This document shows positions 5,601-45,991 of a stretch of 64,000 nucleotides of DNA, piece after piece. The stretch is from Blasia pusilla (taxonomy: Eukaryota). The notes under the pieces are model-generated. The model was not told the origin of the DNA and made no database searches. It worked only from the letters and a program-made list of their open reading frames with translations. Where the stretch lies: positions 43,772,001 to 43,836,000 of the forward strand of contig CM114271.1 of NCBI GenBank assembly GCA_050084515.1, read 5' to 3'. Each line of letters opens with the position of its first letter. Positions within the stretch are counted from its first letter, which is position 1. Position numbers and translations under genes: made by a program.

Positions 5601-6871
5601 ATGAAGGGCACTTTCCACGAACTAAGCGCACAAAAATCTCTCAAGCACTCATGCGGGTGCATACAAAACGCAGAGTGCTTCTAACAGGTACACTGTTCCA
5701 GAACAACTTCAAGGAGATCTTCAACCTCCTGAGGCTCTCCAGGCACAATTTCATGTCTTTCCTTCCTGAGTTTGCAGCTGAGTTGAAAGCTCGAGAGTTA
5801 GGCAAGAAGAATGACGATAACCTCACAGTGGAGGAGATCGACATGAGTACACGGGAGTGTGAAGAACAGATGTTTATGGAAGGTATTGGATGCAAATTGG
5901 AGGATTTTGTGCAAGGAGCTAGTTACTCTGAAGATATGAATAGGGTCTTGCACAAGTTACGGGCACTCACTTCTCCGATTGTTCACTGGTATGCTGGACA
6001 AATCCTCGAGAATCTTCCGGGTCTTAGCGAGTTTGTAGTCTACTTGAATCTCACAGAAGATCAGCAGGAATTGTACTCGCATCTGAAATGCAAAAGAGGC
6101 CTGGAAGAGAGGACAAGAATTGCCGAAGTATGCATCCATCCAGCACTCCTGAAGAACGATGACAGTCTTGCTATATCAGGTCCCCAACTTCATAGTGAGC
6201 AGGAACCCCTCAAAGGAGTGAAGACGGCTTTTGTCTTCCATCTCTTGCGCCGCTGCATGGTCTGTAACGAAAAGCTGCTCATTTTCTGTCAGACTCTGGG
6301 GCCCCTTGCTCTCATCGGGTCTATGCTCACCAAGATGATGGGCTGGTCAAGAAGTATCGAGTTCGTCTGTCTAGACGGAACAATGCAATCTGAAGACAGG
6401 CAGCAGGTGATCGATCAGTTCAACGAGGGAAGCAGTAAAACCCGTGTCATGCTGGCCTCGATCACAGCTTGTAAGGAGGGTATCTCCCTTGTGGGAGCTT
6501 CACGAGTGGTAATTTTGGATGTCCTTTGGAATCCATCTGTGGTTCGTCAAGCCGTCAGTCGAGCGTTCAGGTTAGGCCAGACGAGGAAAGTCTATGTTTA
6601 CAGGCTGGTCGCAGCCAACACCAAAGAGGAGAAAATCTTCCAGGGGGCAATTCAGAAGGATTGGCTCTCAAGGATATTGATGGATCAATCCTTCAGGATG
6701 ACTAGCAGGGGTTTCAATCCCGCGAACATCTTACGCATCGATAAAACTCCCTGTGATAAAATGCTGCAGAATCTAGTGGAAACCGATAAATGCAACAGGA
6801 TTGATCGTATCTGTCGATACCAAACACTCTCGTCCAGCGCCGCTGACAGATCAAAGTGGGACTACGAATGA
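2612..6871 (+). CDS. CLASSY/DRD1-subfamily SNF2 chromatin remodeller (RdDM-associated), multi-exon
   Basis: The last exon 4931-6871 has SNF2 motifs GGCILAHAPGTGKS, LVLDEGHFPR, LLTGTLFQNN and WNPSVVRQAVSRAFRLGQ. Exon 4584-4733 has the CLSY/DRD1-type CxH...GxxCxxCG motif (CSHKYQLEDDVGWVCEQCGLV). Phase-0 GT-AG junctions at 4339/4584 and 4733/4931 join the exons in frame. Upstream exons at about 2612-2695, 2840-2945 and 3165(or 3219)-4339 are phase-compatible, but the start codon is uncertain. Confidence 0.9.
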
Positions 6872-8009: not shown

Positions 8010-8897
8010 TGTTTGTGTTATCGTGCGCATACACATCGCTGTTCACTTCCACACAACAGACATCGTTGAGCTTCTTAACACATGCAAAAAATTACAATCA
8101 CAAATGTATACCAAGACCACATGTACGACCGATCCACAAGGCAACTTGGTCTCTTAACTTTATGTAGCACACATTGTATCCACTAGATACAATCTACAAC
8201 TTGATACACATTTGGCACATGCCTATAGTCTTATGAGAATCACATCAAGAAGAAGAGGGGAAGGGTAGAAAGGGGCGGGAGGATGATAAATCACAATAAA
8301 TGCCACCCTCTAAAACAACCATCACAAACCAATATGGTGGTTGCACCTCACAACTTCATACAACATACGCCTAAAGCCCATAGGTACAAGTGCCAAGCTT
8401 GGATCTATTCTCCCAACTAGAAGATGACATGGCACTCAATTGCGTATATGATCCTTCCAAACCACATCATCATGTCCTTCTAGCATGAGGACTTTGATAG
8501 ACAACATCTCATGCACACGGAAAATTTTCTCCCAGAGTTAACATCTAGCATTATTAGTGTTACATACACATATTCTTCATGATGAAATATTATGATCCCT
8601 AGACAATAGCCTCCTCCACAAATGGTTGCATATCTCAATGTATCCATATCTAGGTCATGAAGGTCCAATATCTCTGCCATGTTACATTGAATAACTAAAA
8701 GTAAGTTGTGCTCTTTCCTACATAGCAAAAATTATGGTGAAAATAACACTAAGAATGCCTACGAGTTGAAATGACACCCCGTTGCTAACTATGGAAAGTG
8801 TAGTTCTCACTCCCTTAAATGTTCACATAGCAAGCCATATTTGTATAGTACTCTCTTCACCGAATGACTACTTTCTCCGCCAATTTATTCGCCCCAA
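8010..8897 (-). mobile_element. Ty3/Gypsy remnant: integrase C-terminal half, PHD finger and 3' UTR/LTR piece (decayed)
   Basis: Minus-strand translation through stops and frameshifts gives ANKLAEKVV..KRVLYKYGL, DTLRYATICGGGY, LEGHDDVVWKDHIRN*VPCHL, then ATTILVCDGCFRGWHLL*..PPL (PHD-like). 8022-8053 GTGCGCATACACATCGCTGTTCACTTCCACA matches 12716-12745 GTGCGCATTCACATCGCTATACAATCCACA. Confidence 0.75.
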
Positions 8898-9044
8898 TTT
8901 TTTGGAACTATGGAATAGTCATCTTTCTAGGATTTGGTTGGAGCTTGTGTGCTAGAGTCTCAAATTTCCGCATGGCGGAAAATGGATATGGCTTGATGAC
9001 TATACGTAGATTTAAGAGTAGAGTTGGTCGTGACCTATTTCTAC

Positions 9045-9156
9045 TTCGAGCAAAGGTGTTGGCTGAACAAGGTACTGAGTTTAGAGGAGAGCTCCAAGCC
9101 TTGTATAATCAAGCGTTGATAGATCACCACACTATGTTTAGGGATCATCTTGGGGC
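9045..9156 (+). mobile_element. Inverted fragment of the Gypsy integrase core
   Basis: AKVLAEQGTEFRGELQALYNQALIDHHTMFRDHL resembles the rve segment EVLTDQGTEF...IDH..TS..HP. Confidence 0.7.
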
Positions 9157-9699
9157 TCCTAGAAAGATCACTATTAATTCCATAGGCTCAACATGAGAAA
9201 AGATGGCTAGTGAGAGCCATCTCCTCATCTTTTACACACTCCGGAAGAGGCAAAATAGCTTTTCCCCAAAAACAATAGAAAATGGCAATCTACGGGCATA
9301 CATATTATCGAATGCATGTTGACTTCATCAATATGTCACTTGGCTTAAAATAGCAAAAAAAAGATTTGTTGGAAATATAATACCCTCCCATATTGATGTT
9401 GAGAATTGAACACTCTTCTATAAATTCGTCTTAAAATCCTATGACATGTGGCATAAAATGAGAGTTTAAGGGGAATTGCTTAGACAAATAATGGTATAGA
9501 TATGTGGAATCATGGTCTTAAAATCCTTTTTTGAGAGGAAAATTTTCTCATTTCCTCCAAAATTAGAGGAGGAATGTAAAATGGATGAGTAATCATCCAT
9601 GCGTATGTAATACTACTATTTGGGTGTACTTTTTGGGTAGTTTTTTTTAGAGAATGAGTAGTTTTTTTGTGTTCATAACGGATGTCCAAAATCCTCAAA

Positions 9700-10490
9700 G
9701 TTTTCTTAATTGTGGTTGGCTATTTGATACAAAATACAAAGGGACCCTATATTTTTAGTTTGTTTCTAGCAAGCAATTCACTAATGGAAACAAATATTCG
9801 TGATTTCAACCAGCAAGTTCAATTTGTATTTTGGGTTCTCCTTGGACATTGGTTGGGGCCGTGCTATGCACTTGGGCATATGGACGTAAACATGTACTGA
9901 TAGTGGCATTTGCATGGAGAGATTGACCCAAATAGGGATAATGGGAAAAAAAACACGATGAAAAGTTTGAGATGCGAAAATTCTTATGAGGGCAAATGTA
10001 AAAGAAGATTTTGGGGAGATTATTGTAAATATTTTTTAAAGAGATTTCTGGCCTACTATTTTTTGACAGATATTTATGGCTAATTTTTTTGACTCAAATT
10101 CTAGTCAATGTACAATTTCAAAAAATCTTCATGAATACACTTTTTGAAGAGAGTTCCAATAGATATGTCTAAAACTAGATCACATAACCTTTTTGGTTGG
10201 ATATATTTGATGATCCAATCCAACAAAAAATTGCGTGTGAGATTAATTGGGATTTTAATAAGGAGAAGCTAATACAAATGGCAACATAGATTTTACGGGC
10301 TAGCATGCACTTGGATAGATTAATTGGTTGGAGACCATTCATTTGGTCATCTATTTATCATTTACTAGTAAAATGGATGTCTATGTGGTTATCGATGGCA
10401 AAAATACTCAACAAAGGTCTTTTATTAACACGCCTTGTTTCAATTAGGTTTGGTCAAATCTATTTGTCGAGTGACCTATTAACTCATTAA
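9700..10490 (+). mobile_element. Possible highly decayed LINE (ORF1/endonuclease) remnant
   Basis: Only weak traces, such as a GDFN-like TGGGATTTTAAT at about 10248; no long ORF. Confidence 0.25.
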
Positions 10491-11859
10491 AATAAGATAC
10501 GTGTATGAGGAAGCTTACTTGTTTCGAGAAGGCTTCAATAAAAAGTAAAGTATTAGTATTCCCATGCCTGAACGTATCTCTTGCCTCAACAACATATTTT
10601 GGTATTCTTCTCTTGTATCAATTAGCATTGTTCTCATTTGATTAATAGTATAACATTTATTTATTTCAAAAGTTTTTTTTATTCTCAATTTAATATTCAC
10701 TTCCATTTTTAATCTCTATTCCGTATCAAATAATTTTTAATCTTCGTATGACATTATTGTATGGTATTATATTTGATTAAATATTTTTAAATTTAAATAC
10801 ATCAAAAAGTTTTTACAAAAATAAATTTCATTTCAAGTTTTGATCTTTGAAAACTGTTGATTCCCATAAATGGAAATGCTTCTTTTACGAATATTTTTAC
10901 TTTACAACATACATTTTTAGATTTTTGAAAGTTATTGAGAATTTCATCATGCATTCCAAGGTGATGTGTATGACGGTGCTTATCAACATGGAATCATAAT
11001 TCGTAATATGTTTTAAAGCACATACATTCATTCATATGCCCATAAAATCCAGGCAATATGTTGAAAATTATTATTTACCCCGAGGATGGTTGTGGATTGT
11101 CCATTGCCTCAAGTTTTAGCGCATTTTCCCCCAGATTTTCCCATGGAAATGCATCCGTAACATGTTTTTGCCTTTGTAACATGTTTTTGGTTGTTTTCTG
11201 CCATGATTTCTCACATTCCTAATTCATTTTCAATGTGTTTCCACCTTCATAACCAAAAGGTCTAGTGGAGGGATAGTTCTTGGATGCACACACGATGATG
11301 TACATGTTTTGGTTAGAAGACAATCCTTGGTCCTTGATTGACAATTTGATAAGGATACCTACTTCTTTGCTATACCATTTTCATTTATGTCGGAAAGCTT
11401 TGATTAACTTTGCATGGTATTCACATAAATAATATTCATTAAAACGAATTAAATTTTCATTATTATATGTGTAAGAATAGTTATGAGAAGGAGTTAATTT
11501 ATCAGGTAAAATACCAAATGTGAAGTTTGAAAGGAGAGATGAAGAAATGAATTTCTCAAAGAAATACATGAATCAAAGAAGATGGGGAACCCACAAACAA
11601 TAGAAGGAGAGGAGTTTAAAGAGTTGGGGACTCCAATTAGGTAGGAAGGTTTTTTTTAAGGGATGAGGGAAATTTTTTTATTAATATGGAAGAAGGAGAT
11701 TTCTTCATAAAGAAAAACGAAAATGATTTTTTTGAAAAAAGAGAGCATAAGATTGGCTTTCAAAATCTGAAAAAACTAATGGATTCCCAATGCTAATTAC
11801 CTATTGTTAATTTGAATCATCATGTGATAGGTAATTACCTCATGACTTATAATTTAACA

Positions 11860-12180
11860 AATCCAGAAAATTCTTAATTGACCTCTTAAATCAAATTTGA
11901 ATGATCTTGTTGACTGATAGATCAAAAAATCCTATTTGCTTAGAGAGCGAGGTGTCACGAGGAGAGATGTTTGAAAGTCAAAGGAGCACTTTCAAATAGT
12001 AATATGAATTAAAAAAAAGCACTCTCAAATAATAATATAAATTATAAAAAGAATTAATATAAACTTGTGCAATGCACGGATTTATATTACCTCACATAAT
12101 TCCCTCTCAAAATTCTCAAGTGCCATTTAAAATCTATTTCGAGTGATTCTATTGATTCAAAAGACGAGCGATCCCATTGG
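11860..12180 (+). mobile_element. Non-autonomous repeat with a Helitron-like 3' hairpin; an inverted homolog lies at 30295-30440
   Basis: 11925-12010 and 12105-12175 align to the reverse complement of 30295-30375 and 30370-30440. 12065-12079 TTGTGCAATGCACGG resembles the subterminal Helitron hairpin, although no intact CTAG terminus is seen. Confidence 0.5.
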
Positions 12181-12658
12181 TGGAAAATGTCAAGTATCAT
12201 GAGCAGAGGTGTTTTTAAGATGAAGGGGCTATAGTACGCATAGATATCGCTACACAATCCAAATTATTGGTCACATCCTCACCATACAACATCGATCTTC
12301 CCAACACACGGGTAGATCCATACACTTGTATGCAAAAATTAACTATTGCATGTACATGAGGAGGGAGATATGGCTTGAGAAAGCTATCACTCCCTCTCTT
12401 GTCGCCTTAGGAAGAGCCACGAGACTCTTCCCTCCAAGCAATCCCACCGGTAACATGCGTGCACACGTTATCGGGTGATGCTTGTTGTGGTCAACAACTC
12501 ACTTGGATGACAAAGACCAAAGTAGTGAAGTTGTTAGAAATGACGTTCCTGACACAATAGACTTGTCGTCAACCTCATCCGACACCTCACGACAAAGTTA
12601 CACCCAAACAATATGAGGATCTTCTATGTCATCGACGTGGTAGAACTCTACCTATCGG

Positions 12659-12712
<54 letters not shown>
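12659..12712. repeat. (CTAA)n tetranucleotide microsatellite, about 13 units
   Basis: Direct read; it lies within the LTR-like region. Confidence 0.95.
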
Positions 12713-13976
12713 TTTGTGCGCATTCACATCGCTATACAATCCACATTATGGGTTACATCTACATCACACAACACCAATCTTCCCAACACATGGATAGATC
12801 CACACACATACATACAAAAATGAACTCATGCATATACATCGAGATCACACAATCGCCCCTCTAGTTGACGATTGGGGGGGGGGGGGGGGCAATTGTCCCT
12901 AACTCTAGATACATCACATCTACCTAACATGATCTACTACTTTATATACATATAGCACTGTCAGTGTTTGTCATACACGTAATATCTCCCAACACATGCT
13001 CGCCCTCGGATCCATCTCATCTATCTCCACCTAGAGATTTCAATGCATGTGTATGTCATCTTGCAATACTACAGCTAACCCCCGTTTTGATCAATATCCC
13101 TCCAAAGAGATCTAATACTCTTGCATCCTCCTTTCGATGCTACCAACAACTCTCTTGGCTAACTAACACCACATATGAATGCTGCCAACGTGGTTATTGT
13201 ATCATTGTCTGGTCAACCACCTCATCCTACAAATGGCACGGGTAACTGACTCGGCTGGCCATCGCTTAATTGCCACCCTCACCGTAAGGCCACGGTCTCC
13301 TCCCAAAAATCAAGCATGAATCCTAGCGGATGTAGCACTATACTCCCCATCAATACATTTTACGACTCTATTGGTGTCATAATCGTACAAGTGCGCACCA
13401 AAGCATTATCTGTCGCATGCTCTGACTGGACTCTAATAACAACCTCATGTCGAGTCATGTATTGCGTAGGAGCCACATCCCCAACAGAGGTGTGTATCTC
13501 AAAGGGAGAAGGCTCAATATTGCCTTTCCGTAACCCCGACACCAAACATGACGCCTTCCCTAATATCAAGGGATGCACTCCCAAATCAAGTAGGACATGC
13601 TGTAGATAATACATTGTACCTATGGGACAAACCAAAAAATACACTCAAGCTTGGTTCTCCAATAACTCCACACGTGGTGTCACCATGGCTTGCTCTATCG
13701 CTGGCCTAGTTGACATATCTACCAACTTCACCATCCCAACTTGCCATGAGTGGATGGGGGATGTCTCCAGCATTTGGTGAGAGGGTAGGTCCACCACATC
13801 CTCACCAACCACCTCCGAATGAGAGGAAGTCATGTCTCCACGCTCAAATAACGTGGCAGCAATACGGAACACCTCCGTTCGTCTAACTCCCGATATCGCC
13901 AAATCCATCGTAGAAAAAAATGGAGCTTGGCTCACCCTACTAGCCTTCTTCATCAAGGAGGTTGAAATTTGCTCAC

Positions 13977-14060
13977 TCAATCCAACATAGAAGTCACCTC
14001 TCCAACTTCTCATGATCGACATCATGAGAAGTTGGAGAGGTGACTTCTATGTTTGATTGA
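13977..14060. repeat. Near-perfect inverted repeat (33-bp perfect stem, 4-nt loop, extends to about 40 bp)
   Basis: 13984-14016 AACATAGAAGTCACCTCTCCAACTTCTCATGAT, loop CGAC, and 14021-14053 is the exact reverse complement. Confidence 0.95.
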
Positions 14061-14725
14061 TGATTGGTGTAGATGAGGTCCGGTTGAGATTGATCATGGG
14101 CACCCTTGATTGTCTAGGCCCTATTGATGGGGTGTGAAGTGCCTCCGACAATGTAAAAGATTGTGGACCCCTGTCCTATCGCCCATCGGTCCCCTCCTAT
14201 AGGTCAATCTCAACCTGACCTCTCTATGGCTTGGTCACTCTCATAACACTCCGAGTCACCACCGCAACAATCTCTACCTGAGTCGCACTACACATAAATC
14301 TCAACCGAGTGTAATCCTCCCGTGTATCCTGATCCAACGTGGACGTTGGAGCTAAAGTAGCTACTGCCAGATCCTAATCTGTCATTGGCTGTATCATTGA
14401 CATGAGATCAATCCTCTGCTCCAATTGATCAATGCAAGTGAGGAGAGTTGCATCATGCACGTTCTCCACCTCCTCTGATTGATAGTGGAAGGCTAAAACC
14501 ATGATCTTCAACTCCATGACCTTGATCCTCTCTTGCCTCTTTGGCCTACCTGTGGATTTAGCTCGTGGCAAAGATTAAATCACCTATCTGTAGTGTGACC
14601 ATATTGGTGACAATGGTCACACTACAACTGTGGTGGGGCTATCCTAAGTGGCTCTTGAACAATCAAAGGCGCTCTCCGCCCTCTATCATATGGGAAGTCC
14701 CTCTACCTATGGGACCCACCATATA

Positions 14726-15732
14726 TATAGCGATCCTCATAACCAAACGAGTGCCAAGCGGAACATCAGAACTCTAGTGGGCTAACGCTAGGATAGTTTA
14801 CGCATTGCAGAGGTCTCTTGAAGGAGACACAAGATATGAGACGCGAACAAGGTTGAGTGTTTCATGCATTTATGGTTGTGAACAAGAAACCTAAACCAAA
14901 AATAAACTAAGACTTGAGAGACGTTGAGTCTAGGAAGAGTGGTTGCCAAAGAGGTGAGAATCGGATTTGGAACGTGACTAGCGTTTGAGATTTTGACTGT
15001 ATTTTGGACCATAACTTTTAGTCTCAAGATGTATTTGGCACAAGTAAGATGGCATTGGAAAGCTTATGCAAAGCCACTTCTAACGCACTAAAGATCTTAA
15101 TAAAAGCACTTGCATAAGAGTTGGGTTGAGGGCCAAAACAAGGGGCCTGAGAGTCTTTTCTCAAAATGTAGGGGGAGAGCGGAGAACCCCAAAAGTACTA
15201 GTAAGGGCGGAGGTCTTTAAGAATTCTTGGGACTCAAACCCCTCTTTGGGGCGCCGCGGGGAAAATCAAAGGTACAGAATGGATTGGGAGTTTGGCATTG
15301 GAAATTTAAATATAAACCAAGTCCAATAAAGTGGATTTCAAAGGTCCCTCTAGGATTCCAACCCAAAACTCATTTAAGTGGATCTCAAGTAGGGGCTCAT
15401 GCAAGGTCCATTGAACAGTTGGGACCGCCAAGCATATGATCGTTGTTTTAGGTGCGTGGACTATCCAAAAGGTCTATCCCAACTCTCGGAAGACTTGCTC
15501 GTGTTGAGAAGTGAGGAACTAGGAAGGTTGAGCTTGATGAAGTTTGCGAGTTCAGAACTCGGTTAGTTGGAAGGATGATTGACCTAGACCAAGCTAATGT
15601 GAGTGTGTTTGAGTGCAGATCAGCAACAAGAGCATGTCCTATTGAACGTACACTTCCGCAACACTAAAGATCGATGTTCAAGAGATCGATGCGCATGACA
15701 ATAGATCCAAAAACGTCGGTCCCGGCTCGCCA
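14726..15732. mobile_element. Solo LTR (~1 kb) nested in the zinc knuckle of Gypsy copy 2, with 5-bp TSD ATATA
   Basis: ATATA occurs at 14721-14725 and 15733-15737. The termini are TATAGCGA...TCGCCA (decayed TG...CA). Removing the insert restores a CxxCGGSH-like knuckle remnant. It is homologous to 41750-42640. Confidence 0.75.
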
Positions 15733-17664
15733 ATATATGTCAGTATCGGTCGTTGCCTATTGAGCTTACGCTAATCTTTGGGTACAATGCCCCGCTCTCA
15801 AGACAATGATGCATGGTTGGCACCTATAGGGCTCTTGCCAGTGGTTGTGAATCTTTTGACTCTCGGGGAAATCCTGTGGTCACAACCTGATCCTCACTCA
15901 TGTTGAACTTAATTCGCTTAGACAACTCGAAGACCACCTTCAATATGGGCTTCACCGTGTGAAGCAAGATCACATATTGGACTATCCTTTGCGGCTCTCG
16001 GTCCAAATCCTCGTATCCATACTGTATTGACTATGCCTCAATCACCCAATGTGTGGCAATGATCAATCGTCGCATCGGCGTGAATACCACTCTCAGACTC
16101 TCGCCCGATCTCCACTCAAAATCCTGTAGTCTCTTTAGTTTCTGGTCTGTACGCCCTTGTAGCTCCTCCGAAATTGTCGGAAGAACTCCAATGTAGGACT
16201 AAAACTCGATGGTGCTCTAGCACCAAAGGTCTTTACCACCTCACCGCCTTCATTGCCATCATCTCCATCTAGTCCGTGGTCTGATGATGTTGGCCTATCC
16301 CCTCTTATTACCCCATCATACACCTCGTAGCCACTAGTGGACACATACCGAGGAGCCCAATGCATACTCCAAGCACTAATCTCTATTACGTGTAGAGATT
16401 GAAATTCTCGATAGTCATTCATCCGAGGACCCTCTAATTGGTGGAACAAACCCTTCCACGCGATGAAAGGATCAAACCGCGTAGGGGCTCGCATCTCCCG
16501 GAAGTCACATCATGTGTGGAAATCTTGGGTGAAGTCGTTGAGATCAATGGTACCTACCGCACCCGAGAAATGACGCATGCCGGGGTGGCTTACGTCATCT
16601 ATCTTCCTCCATGTGACATTGTCTTTGTGTGCGATCTCATCACAAGACCCAATGTCTAGTGATGATGATCCAGCCATGGATGGGAGTCGGGGTGATTCCT
16701 CACTTGAAACCCCTCCACTCCATGTAACTTCACTACCACTACTCGGGCACTCCCCAACATTCTACTTCTGTCCTAAGTTAGTTTGCCCCAACAAAACTTG
16801 AGAAAAACAAACAACGGATCGATGCACAACTTTCCACACGAAAAATTGAGAAAGTGACATAAACATTGTGTCACTCCTCAGAAAGACAACTTGTCCGCCG
16901 ACCTACATATAACGAAGCCTTTAATAATAATGAGCAGTTCCCTCCCTCCTATTGCCACGTATTCTTCTAGTGGCATTTGGGTGCGAAGTCAATTTGGAGG
17001 GCAAAATGCTAGTTATTTTGGCGTACCTTCTCTTATTTGTCGGATGTAATGGAGATGTGAGACTATTCTCACTCCGCGTGAATGGAAACATGAGCGTACT
17101 CACTCCTCGTCTCCCCTCTCAATTCCATTCTATTCTCTCCATGCCTAGTGTTAGTGTTTCCTCCATGCCGTGTTGGTGTTTCCTCCACTTTCTTAGTGCT
17201 CTCTATGTTATTACCTCCACACCTAAATTGCTCCATACCGTGTTAATTTCTTTTTTGATTTTGGTTTAAAAAAACCCAAAAACCGTTGGTTGCAATTTTG
17301 CATGTTCGTTTTAGGGTCTTAAAATAAGTAAGTACGTCCGTGTGAAAGCGAAAGCCCCTCGTGGTTTAATTTCGGGTGGATGACGTTGTGCTGCGGGGCT
17401 CCGTTCTTTTGTTGTTGGACCTTATCCTTTCGCTTCCTTTCTACCGTCGGGCTCCATCTATCGCTGTGTGATTGTAAGCGTCGAGAATTCTCAACACGTG
17501 AGGCACTGCGAGGAGGGCACAGTTAGCAGCTATGGCAGCGTTGCACGCGACAACGAGGAGCGTTGCGGCCGCAACATCGTGCTTTGTGGCTTCAAATTCT
17601 TCACGACAGCTGCTGGATTCACCTGCGTCCGTATGCGTGGCCAGTCCTAGCGGGCTTTACACTT

Positions 17665-21923: not shown

Positions 21924-21987
<64 letters not shown>
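21924..21987. repeat. (CT)n microsatellite
   Basis: Direct read of the sequence. Confidence 0.95.
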
Positions 21988-21990
<3 letters not shown>

Positions 21991-22199
21991 CATGATTTGA
22001 ATCCATCAATTTTCAATCCAAATCGATCCACATCCATGAAAATTAGCATGCACAATGGCCTGGCCTGTCACAAACAAGTTATCCCGGATTTTGCAAGCCT
22101 CAATCTCTCTCTCACCATCTCTTATCTCTACCTATCTCCACCCATAGCTAGTAGAGCTAGAATAGTACAGTGACATTGACGTCACTTGGTTACTTAATG

Positions 22200-25100
22200 G
22201 TGGTGGTGCGGCATCGGCGTTGGTCATCACGGAGCTGTCTGGTGGTATGGTTGGGGACCGTGGTGTGGACAGTGGTGGTTTTACACGGAGTGGATTGAGG
22301 TATCGACTACCTTTTCCAGTTTGGACGGTTGATGAAGAAGAGGACGAGGGTGTTCCAAACACCGAGTCTTCTACGTTGTTATCGAGAGTTGCAGCTCCAT
22401 TGATTTGGGATATGGACGGGTTATATGGGGCCATGAAGGGCCCACGACCATACTCGAGTGCAGTGAACACCATTGAGTTGGAGGACTTCATTCAGGAGTT
22501 TGATACATGGTGTGATATGCAGATGTTGCGAAATGCCACGTTGTTTACACCCTTCTTGGCTTGAAAGGGGTTGTTTCATCACTTGGAGGGACCACCCATG
22601 GATGATTACCATGAGTTTAGGAAGGACCATGTTGTTGAGATTGAGGCGTGGAGACAATATTGGTCTCCAGGCTATGTGTCTATCACCCATGGTGGTATTG
22701 GTAGTAGTGCTCCTACTATGCCAGCCAGCCCGACGTTGAGTGGTATAAGTACGAGCCAAAGTGGGGATACCAGTGGAGGTACCAGTGGGGGTACTAGTGC
22801 CCCACCATCGTTCATCCCGGTTGCAGAGTTCTTTAAGAGGTTGAAGAAGAACTATCATGGAGTGAAGACACAGAAGTTGAGGAGTCTTCAGGAATTTGAG
22901 CGAAAGACTGGTGAGAGTCTTCGTGAGGCATACACTCGTACGCCACGCTTGATTTCACTTACCCAGGGTGTGACTGAGGCTCAGGCAGTCTAGTTTTAGT
23001 ATGGGATCTTGGACAGAGAGTTGCGCCGCAGGGTACGTGATGTTACTCTTATGAGTGATGATTTATCCACATTGACCCATGTGTTTGCTCTATCTGAGAA
23101 GATTAAGCTTAACATGGTGGAGGAGAGAGTGGTGACATCCGCATTCACTAGGGATACAACTACTACTTCTCGTGTTCAGCAGTCCACCTCACAGTCTCGT
23201 AGTAGTGGTGGTGGTAGTAGTAGTGGGAGTTGTGGAGGGTACACACGACCTCAGTCACGTCCTAGTGGGACACTTGCGCAGAGACCATTGCCTTCATTTG
23301 CTGCCCCGCAGCAAGGACAGTCATGTTGGACATATGGAGATGATCATGTTAGGAGGTTTTGTCCCCAAGAGGATGGGAGACGGACTTTGGAGGATGGGCC
23401 TCAGTCGGCCTCAACTCAGTGTGATCATTGCGGGAGACCATGTCATCCTCAAGAGCGTTGCTTTGATCTTCATCCAGAGTTGAGATCAAGCCGCGGCCGT
23501 GGTGGAGTAGCTCCGAGAGGCCAAGGTGGTAGAGGTGGTAGGGGTGGTAGAGGTGGACCAGTGGTTGGAGAGCCTACGGTGGCTACCCCTACCACTACGA
23601 CAGAGTGAGCTATGGTTGCCAGGATTGAGCAGTTGGAGCATAATTTGGCTACTATGGCTGGTATCCAACATAGAGTAGGTTCGGGAGCAAGGGCTTCCAC
23701 CTCTTATGGAGGGGATAATCTCTCTTATATGGAAAGTGCAACACAAATTGAGGCATCAGCTGCAGTTACGAGAGGAGCCACTCGAGCGTCAGAGCCACGT
23801 GGTGCTACTGTGCAGTTGGACCCACATAAGGGTGAGGCTGGGAGGCCGGCTAGGCTTCCCCAGTCATTCTTGTTGTCTAAGGTGGTTAGGACCCCATCCA
23901 TGGTTCCTACGCAGCCTATTGAGCCTACAGTGGGGACTTAGGCATCTACATCGCGTGCAGTAGACATGGATGCAGCATCCAGTGCAATATTGCGGATGGC
24001 AACTTCAGTGTTGGGATCCCCATTGTTTTCGTCCATGGAGCTGATGCCTTTAGGAGTTGACTTAGCTCATGTATTTCAGCTAGCAGCCACGTTGTGTGAA
24101 CGTGGGGGTGTTATTGCTACATGTGCTGAGGTGGATGAGGGTGTTGCGGTGGAGCGACCCTCTATGTCAGATGTAGCATTGAGTACCAGTGCTACTTGGC
24201 AGGCAGTAGCGGCGAAGATGGATGCATTACCAGCCCGGCCAGCCATTGATCGAGAGAGGCTTACACATGGTGTATATATGTTGGACAACCGGAGTGGGAT
24301 ATTCCGATTGGTGAGTCCTACAAGACAGGTGTATAGACCAGATAGAGTCTTGTTAGACTCTGGTGCCCAACCTTTGATGTTGGGAAAGGCGGCATGTATT
24401 GGTTTGGGTATTCGGAGGTCAGAGCTTGAGCCTTGCCCATTCCAGATTCAAACACCACTTGGAGGAGCCAATGATAGGTCTCAATTTATGGCATAGGAGA
24501 AGTTGTCTGTACAGTTGAGACCAGATCATGCAACTGATAGCTCACGGTTGGGAGTACCTGCAGTGGTCACATCAGCCGAGTCGTATGATGTACTAGTTGG
24601 AGGAGCAGTATTGTACCCGATGGGTTTTCAGATGGACTATTGGACTGAGACAAAGTCTTATAGACCTGGTTGGCAGTCCAGGGATGGAGTTATGAGGCAG
24701 GTTCCTGTGAGATTTATTTATGGGGCTCAACCATGAGGATCTTCCCCAACAGTGTTAGCATCTGTGGCTGGTTTTAGTGGAGTAGTCACTTGGCCAGAGA
24801 TTTTTTGGAGGGTTATCTTTCTGCTATGGATTCTCCTGTGCATGAGGAGGTAGAGGAGGTCCCTAGTTTTGCAGCAGTGGCATCCTCATCGTTGGATGTG
24901 CCACTTTGGAGTTCAGGCGGTGCACTACGGTAGGAGGTGATAAATGCAGTGCGGGGGGGCTTGGTGTGAGGCTGTTATACCTCACGAGGAAGAGGAGGCC
25001 CCACGGCGGACTCCTACTTTTGGTCCAGTTGGGTTATCCCCTTTGGATACTACACCCATTGTATGGCAGTATCCGCCGGAGGGCATTTGTGTGTTAGATC

Positions 25101-27730
25101 TATTTGGTGGGATTAGCAGTGGTTTGGCTCCAATGTTGCACGCCGGTATTCCTGTGCGGAGATACGTGTATGTGGAGCAAGATGAGACGGCCGAGAGAGT
25201 CTCATTCCGACATATCGATCAGTTGATGCGGAGATATCCTGAGTTGTTGCCCCCATCAGCTATTTGTGGGTGCCAGCATGCTTTGCCGTCACACATTGCA
25301 TTCTTGGGGGCGCAGGATCTTGAGAGGGTTGGTCGTGTGGATTTGGTGATTTTTGGATGGCCATGTCAGGGTCATACACGTGCTGGTCGTTGTGAGGGAT
25401 TACAAGACCCTAGGTTTCGATGGTTTTGGGAGATGTTACGGGTGTTACAACATCTTCAGGTTCATCAGGCACGTGCTCCAGCTTACATTCTGGAGAATGT
25501 TCCATTGTTGGATGACACTCGGACCCGGATGATGGCGAGTGTTCATGAGGTGCGGTCTTGGATTGGACCAACCGTGTTGTTGGATGCAGCGCGAGTTGGC
25601 TTGTGTGCACATCGTCCACGCTTGTGATGGATAAACTTATTGCCTAGGGAGGTTCTTCGTCGAGCATATGATGCAGTGCAGCGGGATGCTTGCCTTACAA
25701 TGGATAGTATCTTGGATACTGGGCGACTTTCTCAAGTGGTGAGGGTTATTGATCGGTCACCAATGGGAGTGGTGAACCGTGTGGGCCAGCCTAGGATGGC
25801 ACTACCCACATTTGTGAGTTTTTCCTCATCACATGCCTACAGGGAAGGTGGTGCCGTGCTTGTATGGGATTCTCATGTGCGACAGTTGGTGTAGCCTAAC
25901 GCTGATGAGAGAGAGCGTGCGATGGGATTTGCTACTAGTGTGACAGTGGTTGCTTCCATTTCTGAGGCTTCACGACGTCATGTGTTGGGTCAGGCCATGG
26001 ACCTAAATTGTTTGACCTGGATTTTGAGTCTTGGGATGGCCGAGCAGCGTCAACTTTGGACTATGTCTATGGGTCTTCCACCCCTTGTGATGAGCTCGAT
26101 GGCTACAGGGACGGTAGAGACATCGGCTGGGGGCGAGGAGAATAGTATTTTGCATCCTTGGAGTAAATGGGATGTAATGGCTGGGCATGTGGAGTTGGTT
26201 GCTCAAGCTGGTGGAGGAGTTATTTGCTCAGATGATGGTGTAGCTAAGGGTGTACCATCTTGTGAGGGGGTTGCCTAGCAGCCAATAGCGTCGTCCTCTC
26301 CCTCTAGTGTGCCAGTGGAGGAGACTTGGGAGCCATTACTTGGGCCCAAGCTTAGGGGAGGTGAGAAGCGACGCTTGACACAATTCCTACCTGCTTATAG
26401 GAGTTGTTTTGCCTTTAGCATGAAGGAGTTGGGTGCTTTGGTTGGACCCGATATACGGATTGATTTGGCTAGTGATTCGCCAATCTCCCGTCGTCCCTAC
26501 CGATATAGTGATATGGAGAGGGACCTGATTCAGAGTAGGACGTTGGACCTTTTGGAAGTTGGATTAGTGGAGTTGTCGCATGGAGAGTATGCATCAGCCA
26601 CTGTCATGCATGCTAAAAAGGATGTGCATGGCAACTACACGGATAGGTGGATGTGTGGAGATTACCGTCCTATCAATCGACAGACCAAGGCTGATAGGTA
26701 TGCCATGCCTACACCTGAGGAGATCTTTGATGTGGTGGGACAGGCAAAGATTTCCAGTACTTTGGATCTTCGGGCATGATACCATGAGTTTCCAATTCAA
26801 GAGAGTGACAAGGCCAAGACAACATTTTGGGGTGTCAACTCTCATGGCAAGGATTGTTTGTACCAGTGGAAATTCTTACCCTTTGGGTTGAAGAATGCAC
26901 CTGCCGAGTTTCAGAGAGTGATGGACAGGATTCTAGCAGTGTTGGATTTTGTTCGGTGTTACATTGATGATATCTTGGTGTTCACTAACACGGTGGAGGA
27001 GCATCAGATACATTTGTAGATTGTGTTTGAGCGGTTGAAAGCTCATGGTCTATGTTTGCATCCAGGAAAGTGTAAGTTCTTCCATGAGGATGTTGAGTCC
27101 TTGGGTCATGTGATCTATCTAGGTGGTTTGGGAGTTCAGCAAGCAAAGGTGGAGGCTATTGCATTTATTCCTCGTCCGGTAGATGTGAGAAGAGTTCGGG
27201 CATTCATGGGATTGGCGAACTACTATCGGAGGTATGTGAAGGGATTTAGTGCTATGGCAAAGCCTTTGAAGCAATTGCTGAAATCAGATCAGGAGTGGCA
27301 CTGGGAAGATGATCAGGAGAGAGCTTTTGTGGAGCTCAAGGCCCAGTTGGTGACGGCGCCTATCTTGAGGAGACCTATCAGAGGGCGCCTATTTCAGTTA
27401 CACACTGATTGGATTCGGTTGGGACTTCGAGCGGTGTTGACACAACATGATGATGAGCACATGGAGTTTGTGGTGGCCTATGCAAGTCGTTCGAATAATG
27501 CAGCGGAGTCGCGCTATAGTTCATATGAGGGAGAGTGCTTGGTAGTAGTATGGGCTGTGGCACACTTTAGGTGTTACTTATTTGGCACACACTTTACCCT
27601 TGTTACTGATCACCAGCCGCTCAAGTGGTTGATGGAGTCTGACAAGCTTACAGGGAAGCTTGCAGGGTGGGCTCTTATCTTACAGGAGTATGACTTCAAG
27701 GTGGTACATAGACTTCTAGGCGTGTTCTAG
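22200..27730 (+). mobile_element. Ty3/Gypsy retrotransposon polyprotein remnant: Gag-ZnK-protease-C5 DNA methyltransferase-RT-RNase H, truncated before integrase
   Basis: Eleven ORF pieces (22220, 22571, 23009, 23612, 23966, 24503, 24944, 25640, 25922, 26309, 27023) are all in the same frame. Motifs: CCHC-like knuckles at about 23320-23480; LLDSGA protease at about 24350; RT CGDYRPIN, PFGLKNAP and YIDDILV at about 26960; RNase H LHTDW..YASRS..VTDHQPL. No LTR was recognised. Confidence 0.95.
25082..26030 (+). pseudogene. C5-cytosine DNA methyltransferase domain inside the retrotransposon pol
   Basis: Motifs in canonical order: I VLDLFGGISSG, II YVEQD, IV DLVIFGWPCQG, VI YILENV, VIII AHRPRL*W, IX PNADERERAMGF, X RRHVLGQAMD. 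There are two in-frame stops (25625, 25892). Confidence 0.92.
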
Positions 27731-32312: not shown

Positions 32313-34768
32313 ATGGCTTCCATCAGAGCAGTAGCTATGGGTGTAGCACCTGCCTCGTTGACTTCTCTACACGAAGAGCACAGGCCTCATAGATTCGGGA
32401 GATATTGTCTGAGGAGCTCGTCTCTGTTCGGAGCTGGGTTAGATCTGCCAGTCTTGAGCCAAAATTTTCATTCTGTAGAAGCCGTGACACATCAGGGGGG
32501 CACGGCGCGCGCGCAAGGATCAGAGGATGGTGTTCCGCAGGTTCCTGCGAGCCACAAAATCAAGGTTGCCAGTCTCGCTGCCTTCGAGCAGCTGCGGAGC
32601 GCCAGCAACAACCGTAAGTTTTTTTCCGCACCTCGTCTCACACAGTACTTCCATCTGCACGTAGAATGAATGCACCATCGCACACCTGTTCTCTGGCTTT
32701 CTGTGGAAATCGTAGAGCTTTTCCTCGATCAATTCGCTTCGACCTCCACGTCTAGGATCGCATTCTCAGTGATGGCTTGTGTCACTGCGTCAAGTAGTCC
32801 AACATACGCAATTATCAAGAAATTGAGCCCTTCCAACCAATGTTGAGTCTGTCACCGCTCTGTTTCTTAAAAACCGCAGAAAGTTTCCATCCTCCGAATG
32901 GCCGCTTCTTACACTCAGACATACGATAAGTCTTTCCTTGCTCTTAACCCCTTGTACTATCGATGATGGGACGACATCCCGCCCTTCTCTATGGATTCAA
33001 CTGCCGTTACAGAGAATGATCGTATCCGTATCCTCGCTTTAGTTACTGTTAGACAAGCACTTGATATCCGTGAAATCACGCAGGAGGGATTGTGATTGCA
33101 GCGGTGGATTTGAGAAGATTTTCGTGCTTGTTAAACAGGGTACACAAGTGCGAAGAGCAGTATTTTGGTTTTGGGACTGAGTGTGCACACCGCTCCAGTT
33201 GAAATGCGTGAAAAGTTGGCTATACCAGAAGCAGAGTGGCCACGAGCGATCGGTGAACTTTGCGCTCAGAACCACATCGAGGAGGCTGCCGTGCTGAGCA
33301 CCTGTAACCGTATGGAGATCTACGTCGTGGCTCTTTCCTGGAACAGAGGGGTGCAAGAAGTCACTGAATGGATGTCCAAGGTAGCATTTCGTTTCCATCT
33401 CGAACAGTTCTGTTGGGTTGAGCATTGGCTTTATCCTTGTTTACTCCTGAGTTCTTCGTGAACAATTGGACGTACGAAGCCCTCGGAAGCAATGCAGTTC
33501 TATTTTTCCTTTCCATAATTGAGACGTTGGAGTTTTTTTTTCTCACATCTCCAAGTTATGAACGTCGAGCGGCAACAATTTGTGGGCCTGATCTTGCGAA
33601 ACATGAAATAAACTTTCCGTGATTGCAATTTGTGCAGACGAGCGGTATTCCGGTGGAGGAGCTGAGGGAGCATCTTTTTATTCTACGGGACCGTGATGCA
33701 ACACAACACTTGTTCAGGGTTTCCTCTGGCCTCGATTCTCTCGTGTTGGGGGAAGGCCAAATTCTTGCTCAGGTGAAGCAAGTCTACCAAGTCGGACAGT
33801 CGGCACCCGGATTTGGTCGGAATTTGAATGGCCTTTTCAAGCAAGCGATCACAGCTGGAAAGCGAGTGCGCTGTGAAACAAACATCTCCGCAGGAGCCGT
33901 GTCTGTGAGCTCTGCTGCTGTCGAGCTTGCTGTGATGAAGTTACCGGAGCAGGGAATCGCAAATTCCCGTGTTCTCATTGTGGGCGCAGGAAAAATGTCG
34001 AAGTTGCTGGTCAAGCATTTGATATCCAAAGGTTGCACCAAAATGGTGATTGTGAACAGGTCAGAGCAGCGCGTTCTCGATTTACAGGCAGAATTCTCTG
34101 GGGCTGAACTTGCTTACGAGCCCCTCACAGAAATGATCAGGTGTGCGGAGCACGCCAATGTCGTTTTCACCAGTACTGCATCTGATACCTGCTTATTCCT
34201 GAAGGAGCATGTGGAGAAGCTTTCTGCACCTCCTCAGTCACTAGGTGGCGTTCGGCATTTCATAGACATATCAGTCCCTAGAAATGTCGGTGCATGTGTA
34301 GCAGAGGTGCCCTCGGCCAAAGTCTACAACGTCGATGACTTGAAAGAGGTGGTCGCGGCCAACAAAGAGGACCGGAGGCGAAAGGCGTTGGATGCGCAGG
34401 TCATAATTGAAGATGAACTGAAAAGTTTCGATTCGTGGAGGGATTCACTAGAGACAGTCCCCACTATCAAGAAGCTCAGAGCCTATGCTGAAGCCATCAG
34501 GGCCTCGGAGCTGGAAAAGTGCGTGGGGAAAATGGGGGATGACGTGACGAGGAAAAACCGGAAGCTCATTGAAGAGCTGAGCCGGGGCATCGTGAACAAG
34601 TTGCTCCATGGGCCCATGCAACATCTGAGAAGTGACGGTTCTGATGCTCGGACTGTAAGCGAGACTTTAGAGAACATGTACGCACTAGAAAGAATGTTCG
34701 ATTTGAAAAATGATGTCAGCGCCTTGGAGCAGCAATTCCGGGCTGCTGCAGAGAAAGTATCTCAATAG
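32313..34768 (+). CDS. HEMA: Glutamyl-tRNA reductase, plastid-targeted (copy A); exons 32313-32613, 33139-33380, 33638-34768
   Basis: [16 protein letters not shown], catalytic [23 protein letters not shown]-binding GAGKM and DISVPRN are present. GT-AG junctions are phase-consistent. Exon 1 resembles a transit peptide. Confidence 0.97.
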
Positions 34769-43505: not shown

Positions 43506-45991
43506 TCAATCTATTGACACTTTTTCTGCAGCAGCCCTGAATTGCTTCTCTAAGACATTAACTTCATTTTTCAAATCAAACATTCTTTCTAATGCGTGCA
43601 TGTTGTCTATGGTCTCGCTCACAGTCCGAGAATCAGTGCCATCACTTCTCAGGTGTTGCATGGGTCCATGGAGCAACTTATTCACGATGCCTCTGCTAAG
43701 CTCTTCCACCAACTTCTTATTTTTCTTCGTCAAGTCGTCTCCCATCTTCCCCATGCACTTCTCCAACTCTGAAGCTCGAATAGATTCGGCATAGGCTCTA
43801 AGCTTCTTAATTGTGGGGACTGTCTCCAATGAATCTCTCCATGAATCAAAACTTCTTAGTTCCTCCTCAATTATGACCTGGGCGTCTAAGGCCTTCCGTC
43901 GCCTATCTTCTTTATTGGCAGCAACCACCTCCTTCAAGTCATCAACGTTGTATACCCTGGCAGAGGGCACTTCCGCCACACAAGCACCAACATTTCTAGG
44001 AACTGAAATGTCTATGAAATGCCTAATACCACCTACAGACTGAGGAGGTACAGGAAGTTGCTCAGCATGCTCCTTAAAGAACAGAGGAGTCTCTGCCGCC
44101 GTACTGGTGAAGATGACATTCGCTTCTTCAGCACATCTCATCATCTCTGATAGGGGCTGGTAGACAAGTTCAGCCCCACCAAACTCCACTTGCAAATCAA
44201 AAACTCTTTGCTCTGACCTGTTCACAATCACCATCCTGGTGCAACCTTTGGATATCAGATGTTTTACTAGCAACTTCGACATTTTTCCTGCACCCACAAT
44301 GAGGACTTTGGCATTTGCAATTCCCTGCTCTGGCAGCTTCATTACAGCAAGCTCAACAGCTGCAGAGCTAACGGAAACAGCTCCAGCAGATATGTTAGTC
44401 TCACAGCGCACACGCTTTCCAGCGGTGATGGCCTGCTTAAAAAGCCCGTTCAAATTGCGACCAAATCCAGTCGCCACCTGTCCCACTGCGTGAACTTGCT
44501 TCACCTGAGCAAGAATCTGTCCTTCGCCGAGCACAAGAGAGTCAAGGCCTGAGGAAACCCGGAACAAGTGTTGGGTTGCATCGCGGTCGCGTAGAATGAA
44601 AAGGTGTTCCCTCAACTCCTCAACTGGAATACCACTAGTCTGCAGAAATCACGTGTACAGAAGGCTCAATAAAGCTATTGCCAAAGTAAGCCATTTAGAA
44701 ATTGTTGTCTAACAAAAGCACAACGAGACATTCTTTGCTTTGCCTTAGTAGTAGAGATTGGCATGGATGCAGACAAACTCTTCAACTCACTCATCTCAAT
44801 TGGAATACGGGACTTGATACTAAGCGCTCAGAAACTCCTCCACATTGAGACCGAATCTGACCAAATCCAAGCTACTTCTTATCAGTACAACCACAGGCGC
44901 CCCAGAACTAGTACCTTTGACATCCATTCAGTCACTTCCTGTACTCCTCTATTCCATGAGAGAGCTACAACGTAAATTTCCATTCGGTTACAGGTGCTCA
45001 GCACGGCTGCTTCTTCAATGTGGTTCTGGGCACAAAGTTCACCGATTGCCCGGGGCCACTCTGCTTCTGGTACTGCCAGCTTCTCACGCATTTCCACCGG
45101 AGCTGTATGCACGCTGAGCCCCACAACCAAAATACTGCTCTTGGCACTTGTGTATCCTGTTCGACAACAAGGAGAATTTGAATGATCTAATGCGTCATGC
45201 ATACAACTCTGTAACCACTTTCAGATGGGTTACTTGCAGACTTAATATGTAACCAAAAATTTGTAAAGACTCCTGGCAGGAAGAGTCTACTCTGTAGACT
45301 CTTCCTGCACATAACTACCATACAATTGAACTCCACAACACACGCATAATCCAAAAGCATGCATATCACATATCACATCCCTACAATTGGCAATAAAGAG
45401 TTCACAGGAGAAGAAATGCTAGGGTTGGGAACAAAAAAATAGACATGGTCTATTTTTTTGTTCCCAACCCTTTCAATTAGCAGAAGCTGTTAATTGAAAG
45501 GTGTCAACCTCGACGTACTTGGTGCATCCAAACCATTTTGCGATTATCGTGAGGGCCAGAAGTTCTTCTCAGAGTCGGAAAACAAGAGGTGTACTATGAA
45601 ACCCACCAGACAGCAATATCGTCTAACATATGCAGACTGATACACGGGCTCAAGCTGTGCGGAAATAAAGTCCAGATGTAAACTCACGATTATTGCTGGC
45701 ATTTCGCAACTGCTGGTAGGCCGCAAGACTTGCAGACTTAATTTTATGGTTTGCAGGAAGCTGAGGGACGCCATCTCCTGATATCTGCCCACGCGCAATG
45801 CCTCTCTGGTAGGTCACCACTTCCGCAGGTTGGTGTGTCTTACTCAGGACTGGCAGATCCAAGCTGGCTCCAAACAAAGACGAGGTCTTCAGGCTACATC
45901 GTTCGGTACAAGAGAACCTGTGGTCTCCAAGCCCGGGCTTCAATGATGCCGGCGTCACTCCTGCAGCTGTTGATCTAATGGAAGTCATCAT
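43506..45991 (-). CDS. HEMA: Glutamyl-tRNA reductase (copy B); exons 45991-45688, 45156-44915, 44639-43506
   Basis: Same motifs and the same two intron positions and phases as copy A; the frame is intact. Confidence 0.97.
45421..45501. repeat. Two abutting hairpins in HEMA-B intron 1
   Basis: 45421-45444 and 45448-45471 form a perfect 24-bp stem with loop ATG. 45470-45500 forms a 14-bp stem with one mismatch and loop AAG. Confidence 0.95.

Follow-up and report, generated by a model that had tools for sequence, protein, structure and literature searches.

Reports exist on retrotransposons that carry a cytosine DNA methyltransferase (DNMT). De Mendoza et al. (2018) have described them from dinoflagellates and from the charophyte alga Klebsormidium nitens, in line with the initial annotation of the DNA described here, which had named dinoflagellates and charophyte algae. 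In the parts of that article concerned with the alga, the DNMT3-like domain of a Gypsy-type element is described as intronless, non-rearranged and under purifying selection, and the element as having DIRS-like repeats. The domain of this element, KnitGypsy-Dnmt3, gave no methylation in yeast, a result that its authors call inconclusive, and the domains of SymbioDIRS-Dnmt3 from dinoflagellates are described as methylating CG de novo in yeast (PMC5890265). The words Marchantia, Physcomitrella, Sphagnum and moss do not occur in the text of the article, and a 2025 paper and a 2026 preprint cite the report as streptophyte in passages that name no land plants. In the literature searched, which covered few subscription journals, no account of a land-plant retrotransposon with a methyltransferase was found. 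A stretch of 64,000 nucleotides from Blasia pusilla (contig CM114271.1, positions 43,772,001–43,836,000), referred to here as the window and numbered from its first letter, contains such an element on the plus strand at 22222–27713. Taken as a whole, the evidence is best explained by a dead copy of a bryophyte Ty3/gypsy family with a DNMT3-like enzyme in its Gag–protease–DNMT product, and this explanation is regarded as quite probable; readthrough of a stop codon as part of its working is favoured less strongly.

Structure of the Blasia Copy

The copy at 22222–27713 contains Gag, an aspartic protease (PR), a C5 DNA methyltransferase, a reverse transcriptase (RT) and an RNase H (RH) in a single phase. 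Every stop-to-stop open reading frame (ORF) on the plus strand between 22565 and 27730 starts at a coordinate equal to 2 mod 3, in agreement with the common frame that the initial annotation had assigned to the five domains. The limits come from blastn against 61 related loci found in a scan of metagenome contigs, in which likeness starts at 22222 and stops at 27713–27715, and tblastn with family proteins matched 22412–27712 in a single frame. Likeness at the protein level begins at about 22166, upstream of the nucleotide-level start. Immediately 5' of the fragment, at 21925–21990, there is a (CT)n microsatellite of about 65 bp.

Gag occupies 22412–23941 and was aligned to the N-termini of proteins from Marchantia and Sphagnum whose initial Met corresponds to that at 22412. 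The region 22166–22411, some 80 codons 5' of the Met in the Marchantia models, has protein-level conservation with other subfamilies (e.g., L030 and L040), and locus L030 has no in-frame ATG in the matching region. Gag may begin 5' of this Met or use a non-AUG start, or some other constraint may act on the leader. Zinc-knuckle-like Cys/His clusters at 23324–23362 and 23420–23461 have no Pfam match in the window piece; zf-CCHC was matched in two relatives, L030 ORF1 (E 1.2e-7) and protein P0029. The protease at 23942–24736, with its D-S-G at 24350–24370, is likewise placed by the family alignment with no Pfam match in the window piece, and Asp_protease_2 or gag-asp_proteas matches stand at the corresponding place in P0016, P0024 and P0029. 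It is followed by a linker at 24797–24950 that is in a shifted phase (1 mod 3), as seen in a three-frame translation against the homologues.

The DNMT3-like C5 cytosine methyltransferase domain extends from 24958 to 26275 and is identified by PF00145, its motifs, a family profile and the fold of L030. Motifs I (LDLFGG, 25094–25129), IV (GWPCQG, 25355–25372), VI (ENV, 25487–25504), VIII (25607–25639), IX (25790–25819) and X (25985–26008) stand in canonical order and are kept in three family alignments. They fall within the span of 25082–26030 that had been given for them at first sight. An in-frame TAG followed by CAG CCA (26276–26284), aligned with a stop in the relatives, ends ORF1. The reverse transcriptase (26279–27019, YIDD at 26960–26977) was identified by RVT_1 and shares 73% identity with the intact RT-RH ORF of L030, and the RNase H, identified by RT_RNaseH, forms the 3' end of the copy at 27020–27713. 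Among ten pieces of the window scanned against Pfam, seven gave no family, every gag and protease piece included. The remaining pieces gave PF00145 DNA_methylase (24944–25627; E 9.4e-8, 32.3 bits against a cut-off of 22), RVT_1 (26780–27019) and RT_RNaseH (27020–27730; E 2.4e-32). The read-through translation, with X at the stops, gave RT_RNaseH, RVT_1 (E 1e-26), RT_RNaseH_2 and DNA_methylase. These matches bear out the claim of the initial annotation that a C5 methyltransferase lies between the protease and the RT.

The copy is heavily damaged. Read straight through it has 16 stops in phase, of which 11 are premature, namely 22562, 22991, 22997, 23606 and 23939 in Gag, 24494 and 24734 in the protease, 25625 and 25892 in the methyltransferase, and 26777 and 27017 in the RT. 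Of the others, those at 24851, 24938 and 24941 fall in the out-of-phase stretch, 26276 is the conserved end of ORF1 and 27728 lies beyond the element; the shifted-phase stretch itself has one further premature stop. From about 24797 to 24935 the homologues are matched by phase 1 mod 3 and not by 2 mod 3, and in reads from other copies there is an additional letter after 24796, with small insertions or deletions at 24937–24957. The compensating pair of frameshifts that had been proposed at about 24800–24960 is for these reasons real and private to the window copy. Measured against the bulk of other copies from one DNA run, A or T replaces G or C in the window at 124 positions and G or C replaces A or T at 62, the bias expected from the decay of methylated cytosine.

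Integrase and PHD queries gave no match downstream of the window RNase H, and no direct repeat of 80 bp or more was found within 14000–40000, so that no long terminal repeat (LTR) is seen for this copy. Upstream of 22222 there is no likeness to the leaders or LTRs of the related loci; since those are non-coding and from other species, the absence of a 5' LTR is unproven. With its premature stops, no LTRs, no integrase and an end cut at about 27713, the window copy is dead.

Relatives and the Complete Element

Within the whole read-through protein, the methyltransferase part matched 42 long proteins at E ≤ 1e-3, and the match is not a chance one because its relatives are found at E 1e-171 to 1e-185. 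The best long matches are hypothetical proteins of Marchantia polymorpha with 66% identity over 95% of the part, and one is from Sphagnum fallax. Among 8000 shorter candidate proteins scored there were 546 matches, with Marchantia polymorpha, M. paleacea, Riccia sorocarpa, Calypogeia fissa and four Sphagnum species as named sources. The ESM Atlas gave generic methylase clusters only, commonest in Streptophyta or Chlorophyta. PF00145 scores reached 49 bits in L030 and 35–49 bits in the relatives. According to Pfam, protease and methylase occur on one protein in P0013, P0016, P0024 and P0029, the last also with a CCHC knuckle. The methylase stands ahead of RT and RNase H in P0007, P0024 and P0029, and in P0029 the integrase follows.

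A tblastn search with the window protein showed the same gag-PR-DNMT-RT-RH order in the 61 related loci, many of them with an unbroken frame across PR-DNMT-RT-RH. In 27 loci a single-frame match covers at least 95% of the enzyme core; ENV is kept in all 27, F(G/S)G in 26 and PCQ in 20, and 3 of the 27 are free of stops. Loci L001, L050, L051 and L052 as well as L037 and L038 have a common premature stop in the methyltransferase, at the Gln before a conserved VEPNADE, which reflects descent from a damaged copy or one locus sampled repeatedly. Because so many copies and species have the same layout, the methyltransferase is a component of the family and not a single capture. The initial annotation had named a methyltransferase confined to one copy and clustering with a host gene as the finding that would speak against it; the enzyme was found in many copies and in many species.

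The complete element is seen in related loci. In L040, L010 and L051, LTR pairs of about 340 bp (TG..CA, 90.8–94.5% identical) stand about 9.1 kb apart, and no target-site duplication or primer-binding site was recognised at these three loci. The best-preserved locus, L030, has three open frames in one phase, encoding Gag-PR (957 residues, with the zf-CCHC match), the methyltransferase (438 residues, PF00145 at 7.6e-13) and RT-RH-integrase (766 residues, up to the end of the contig). In L040 an integrase core followed by a PHD finger is found 3' of the RNase H; the ORF at L040:13487–14608 ends in this finger (PF00628, E 2.7e-8), as do the integrases of P0026 and P0036. Chromoviruses have a chromodomain at this position, and the PHD finger may be a chromatin reader for the targeting of insertions. 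The whole element of about 9.1 kb thus consists of an LTR, Gag(CCHC)-PR-DNMT, an in-frame stop, RT-RNase H-integrase-PHD and an LTR. The order protease, RT, RNase H and integrase that is typical of Ty3/gypsy Pol is seen in L030, L040 and P0029. The family is a Ty3/gypsy-type (Metaviridae-type) LTR retrotransposon of bryophytes, present in several genera of liverworts and mosses. The term LTR retrotransposon in the initial annotation is correct for the family, but the window copy is incomplete, with neither LTRs nor integrase.

Type of Methyltransferase and Selection

A profile made from 12 domains of the family was compared with all PDB sequences. DNMT3A was matched best (8.7e-19), followed by DNMT3B and DNMT3C (about 5e-16), DRM (7.7e-11), M.HhaI (5e-5) and then DNMT2. 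The match to DNMT3A is collinear, and that to DRM is limited to motifs I–IV, which in DRM are C-terminal, as a non-rearranged enzyme should give. The L030 domain was modelled with AlphaFold from 64 sequences (predicted local distance difference test, pLDDT, 85.4; predicted template modelling score, pTM, 0.81). An earlier model made from 12 sequences was poor (pLDDT 54.4) and was not used. The Foldseek matches listed for the L030 model, which go down to rank 45, are without exception DNMT3A, 3B or 3C. The top match has E 1.4e-20, a template modelling (TM) score of 0.84 on the target and a root-mean-square deviation of 3.3 Å over 326 columns at 21% identity. The ranks of profile and fold suggest that the enzyme is DNMT3-like, which agrees with the resemblance previously remarked in motifs IX and X. 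PWWP and ADD reader domains were not detected by Pfam in the window or its relatives. The catalytic Cys of PCQ, ENV, the R-x-R of motif VIII, and motifs IX and X are kept across members that are 30–45% identical.

Ratios of non-synonymous to synonymous substitution (dN/dS) were calculated by the method of Nei and Gojobori for the window and six of the 61 loci with one continuous frame, with stop and gap codons skipped. Between subfamilies, where some of the deep comparisons are saturated at silent sites, dN/dS was 0.155–0.31 for the methyltransferase, 0.30–0.38 for Gag (0.12 in the sole computable L030 pair), 0.19–0.43 for the protease, 0.16–0.20 for the RT and 0.07–0.17 for the RNase H. Within the closest group the values were 0.5–1.0, as expected for decay after insertion. 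The values between subfamilies indicate purifying selection on the methyltransferase, as on the other parts of the element, and its strength is about that seen for Gag and protease.

The enzyme also has a wider set of relatives. A profile search of 1.84 billion representatives gave 9,311 proteins at E ≤ 1e-3, of which 431 reach E ≤ 1e-30. Among the best 150 of the 9,311, the enzyme stands after RT-RNase H and before the integrase in 65 and before the RT in 5, and 80 are undecidable, a tally that is biased against the layout of the window because ORF1-only proteins of its type count as undecidable. For a tree, 98 proteins of known layout were taken, less 7 members of near-duplicate clusters and those with fewer than 280 matched residues; 10 rows of ORF1 type and the window were added, which gave 97 domains. 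The unrooted tree, made by the quick method of FastTree, has the two layouts on opposite sides of a single branch with an SH-like support of 93. The window belongs to a clade, with a support of 100, whose 14 rows are from bryophytes and metagenomes.

Stop Codon at the End of ORF1

The stop at 26276–26278 is shared by the family. Of 43 loci with a match across this point, 41 have a stop at the aligned residue, and one of the other two is shifted by a gap and also has the stop. Three proteins, P0002, P0003 and P0047 (two from Marchantia and one unnamed), end exactly at the window TAG, and two further gene models skip across the stop point. After the stop, the RT is in the same phase everywhere. 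The description of the element as a methyltransferase within Gag-Pol is accordingly right as to the frame, which is that of the RT, but the enzyme ends ORF1 (Gag-PR-DNMT) at a conserved stop.

Of the 42 sites read, 32 have TAG as the stop codon and 10 have TAA. The hexamer that follows reads CAACCC at 37 sites, CAACTA at two (L055 and L056), and CAACCA (L030), CAACTC and TAACCC at one each; the window has CAGCCA. A leaky stop of type I is described as UAG followed by CARYYA in a review on translation in plant viruses (PMC5382211). The window and 3 of the 42 loci have exactly CARYYA, and 37 loci fit at five of six positions. An ATG stands two codons past the stop in 37 of the 42 loci and is missing in L030, L055, L056 and the window; where present, as in most copies, it may permit reinitiation. 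Beyond the shared stop, RT and RNase H have dN/dS values of 0.07–0.20 between subfamilies, from which it follows that the stop-bearing lineages kept both domains under selection. RNA reads from the species of the window support no joint that would splice out the stop. Readthrough is ranked first because the stop is common to subfamilies that differ at half of their residues, because RT and RNase H are selected and because no such joint is supported. That a minority of ribosomes reads through the leaky UAG to make an RT-RH-INT-PHD fusion, INT being the integrase, would then be the favoured mechanism, by a narrow preference.

The Family in DNA and RNA of Blasia pusilla

The neighbourhood of the element is that of a land plant, as had been supposed. 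The glutamyl-tRNA reductase encoded in the window has its nearest counterparts in liverworts, with 85% identity to Riccia fluitans and 81% to Calypogeia fissa, and those of lycophytes, ferns and mosses follow at 74–77%. On this evidence the host is most probably a liverwort. Reads or contig pieces from two DNA runs and two RNA runs of 2026 were placed on the 5.6-kb stretch of the element at a likeness of at least 90%. The DNA runs gave 103,742 and 2,451 contig pieces. The RNA runs gave 2,337 and 2,001 reads from about 6 and about 12 in 100 of each run, almost all of them 90–99% alike. Only 7 and 6 reads reach at least 99%, so the RNA comes from other copies.

RNA coverage is unbroken over gag, the enzyme, RT and RNase H. 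At the stops of 23939, 25892 and 27017, every RNA read has a different letter at the first base. Past 27713, 81 and 70 RNA reads continue into sequence that is absent from the window. Contigs and RNA reads span the PR-DNMT and DNMT-RT junctions without RNA-supported joints. First mates are almost exclusively on the minus strand in all 30 bins, which suggests sense RNA if the libraries are of the usual stranded type. The family is thus highly repeated in the species of the window and transcribed in sense through other copies. The words "once active" in the initial annotation understate the case, since copies other than the damaged one are transcribed.

Proposed Working and Alternative Explanations

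In the proposed working, most ribosomes would stop after the methyltransferase and so make the enzyme as Gag-PR-DNMT in Gag-like amounts, from which the protease would probably release it. A minority would pass the leaky UAG and make the RT-RH-INT-PHD fusion for copying and insertion. The enzyme would act as a de novo methyltransferase on new complementary DNA (cDNA) or on the surroundings of insertions. An active de novo DNA methyltransferase with such targets is a reasonably likely reading of the enzyme. The full combination, namely a still-active liverwort and moss LTR lineage whose working DNMT3-like enzyme is made in Gag-like amounts and methylates the element's own cDNA or the surroundings of its insertions, and whose replication enzymes come solely from UAG readthrough of the plant-virus type, is judged rather unlikely.

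Several observations weigh against the proposed working. Most copies examined are decayed, as the few stop-free cores show, and dN/dS within the closest group is high. The sense orientation of the RNA depends on the assumed type of library. The assignment to DNMT3 comes from ranks in profile and fold searches. The activity of the enzyme is predicted, and the sole streptophyte retrotransposon DNMT tested, KnitGypsy-Dnmt3, is the one for which yeast showed no methylation in the test that its authors call inconclusive. As to the stop, the fit to CARYYA is largely forced by a conserved Gln-Pro after it, the exact motif is restricted to the window and three loci, and ten loci have TAA instead of TAG. 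RNAalifold with 10 sequences downstream of the stop gave no support for a conserved structure (covariation –0.2 kcal/mol, double change in 3 of 26 pairs). The boundary stop is not among the 40 RNA-read differences listed, beyond which there are 481 more. Two distant relatives pass from the enzyme to the RT without a stop, P0029 as a continuous protein of 2072 residues with integrase and P0024 as a protein that ends within the RT at the end of its contig.

The alternative that survives best is that the shared stop is unprogrammed. RT-RH-INT would then come from reinitiation or from a separate RNA, or else the stop would be an inherited defect of non-autonomous copies that are mobilised in trans. 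The ATG past the stop in most loci, the few exact copies of CARYYA, the lack of a conserved downstream RNA structure and the distant relatives without the stop all fit this explanation. Yet the stop is kept across subfamilies half-different in residues while RT and RNase H are selected and remain in phase; the ATG is missing in L030, L055, L056 and the window, and no splice joint has RNA support. An unprogrammed stop is therefore less likely than readthrough and still a substantial competitor.

A second alternative accepts the enzyme as a real part of the family that does not methylate DNA, either as a pseudo-enzyme that binds DNA or chromatin or as an enzyme that acts on RNA. The lack of methylation seen with the K. 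nitens domain in yeast is in its favour, and for the LINE-borne enzyme RNA methylation is discussed by the authors in the relevant part of the same article (PMC5890265). It has to contend with the catalytic motifs kept across members only 30–45% identical, with a fold that superposes on DNA-bound structures of DNMT3A and DNMT3B, and with purifying selection. On this balance it is judged rather improbable, though likelier than the two alternatives below, and an enzyme acting on DNA is preferred.

It has also to be considered that the hypothetical proteins of Marchantia and Sphagnum are domesticated host genes and the window a pseudogene of one of them. A number of these proteins carry gene annotations, and some are unbroken for more than 1200 residues. 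The many paralogues per genome, the LTR pairs in related loci, the mostly decayed copies and the very high copy number in the species of the window all speak for a transposon family instead, and the gene models stop at the ORF1 end of the element, so that domestication is very unlikely. A one-off capture or nested insertion of a host methyltransferase fragment, or a chimeric assembly, might be suspected from a heavily damaged copy without LTRs in a TE-rich window (rich in transposable elements) with other fragments, but it is hardly credible given the same junctions and phase in dozens of loci and in annotated proteins of several bryophyte genera, the LTR-bounded copies that hold the domain, and the many contigs and RNA reads that cover both junctions.

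The transposon family has consequences for work on bryophytes. Retrotransposons with an enzyme of the class that hosts use for silencing were known in dinoflagellates and one charophyte alga, and are now found in land plants including Marchantia polymorpha, in which transformation, knock-outs, methylomes and ribosome profiling are routine and the role of the enzyme is testable. The enzyme is on the abundant Gag-side product and not on Pol, and the conserved stop would set the ratio of enzyme to replication proteins. The PHD finger on the integrase may read chromatin. If the proposed working is true, bryophyte genomes receive de novo methylation from a source that has so far gone unrecognised. 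As a practical caution, transposon ORFs of this kind are included when DNA methyltransferase genes are counted in bryophyte annotations.

Other Features of the Window

A second fragment of a related element, more divergent and decayed, lies on the minus strand at 12974–16581, with tblastn identities of 33–43% in gag and protease. It consists of Gag (16581–15857), a protease (14454–13132) and a remnant of the start of a methyltransferase with motif I (13175–12974; E 2.9e-4 in a search space of 6.4 kb). Because this remnant directly follows the protease and gag and protease are 33–43% identical, the window holds two enzyme-bearing lineages about 6 kb apart in opposite orientation. The three frames of the minus strand at 8200–13200 gave no Pfam family. 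Short pieces like integrase or PHD occur at 8255–8866 (minus strand) and 9050–9157 (plus strand), with 32% and 56% identity to the integrase-PHD ORF of L040, and to judge by this likeness they are further debris of related elements. The region 10001–12000 is AT-rich (GC about 0.30).

The glutamyl-tRNA reductase (GlutR_N, Shikimate_DH, GlutR_dimer) is present as a pair at 33623–34768 (plus strand) and 43506–44648 (minus strand). The two are closely alike, inverted and about 9 kb apart, and look like a local inverted duplication of a gene of the chlorophyll and haem pathway. A long open exon at 4931–6871 (plus strand) encodes a helicase of SNF2 type (SNF2-rel_dom 6.8e-28, Helicase_C 3.5e-17).

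Comparison with Known Systems

KnitGypsy-Dnmt3 is the closest known element. As far as it is described in the passages on K. nitens, it has in common with the family of the window a streptophyte host and an intronless, non-rearranged DNMT3-like domain inside a Gypsy-type polyprotein, under purifying selection across copies. The copies of the algal element are described as silent and methylated. The two differ in several respects. The hosts of the window family are land plants (liverworts and mosses) and that of the other is an alga. The window family has plain LTRs in L040, L010 and L051, whereas the repeats of the K. nitens element are DIRS-like according to the legend of Fig. 4c. The window-family enzyme stands between protease and RT and is followed by the stop that ends ORF1. 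No K. nitens sequence is among the named matches listed. Elements with the order RT-RNase H-DNMT-integrase-PHD, such as P0026 and P0036, come from metagenome and run assemblies and have a related methyltransferase (32–39% identity, E 1e-30 to 1e-53) and the same Gypsy-type RT, RNase H and integrase with a C-terminal PHD finger. In these the enzyme comes after the RNase H, and in the window family it is ahead of the RT.

Other retrotransposons with a cytosine methyltransferase are more remote. SymbioDIRS-Dnmt3 and SymbioLINE-Dnmt, as described in the relevant passages, belong to the DIRS and LINE classes and to other hosts. The EpiLTR elements with DAM and DNMT (bioRxiv 10.64898/2026.05.21.726589) have, in the part of the preprint that treats them, an enzyme clade sister to DNMT4 and likewise other hosts. 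Among cellular enzymes, DNMT3A, 3B and 3C of mammals give the best profile and fold matches and have collinear motifs I–X, with an identity of about 21%. With the rearranged plant enzyme DRM, the match is confined to the segment that DRM has permuted. Animal DNMT3 enzymes differ in their PWWP and ADD companions, while the window enzyme is part of a retrotransposon ORF without these domains by Pfam.

With regard to the stop, gammaretroviruses make Gag-Pol by readthrough. The leaky UAG of tobamovirus type (UAG-CARYYA), in the passage that describes it, likewise is an in-frame UAG between an abundant product and a polymerase (PMC5382211). The window family differs from both in that the upstream product also holds the protease and the methyltransferase, in that most copies end the motif in C, and in that its readthrough is predicted from sequence. 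Overall, a DNMT3-like enzyme carried by a retrotransposon was already known in streptophytes, and what is new is the land-plant hosts, the plain LTRs, the enzyme on the Gag side with a conserved stop, and the integrase with a PHD tail.

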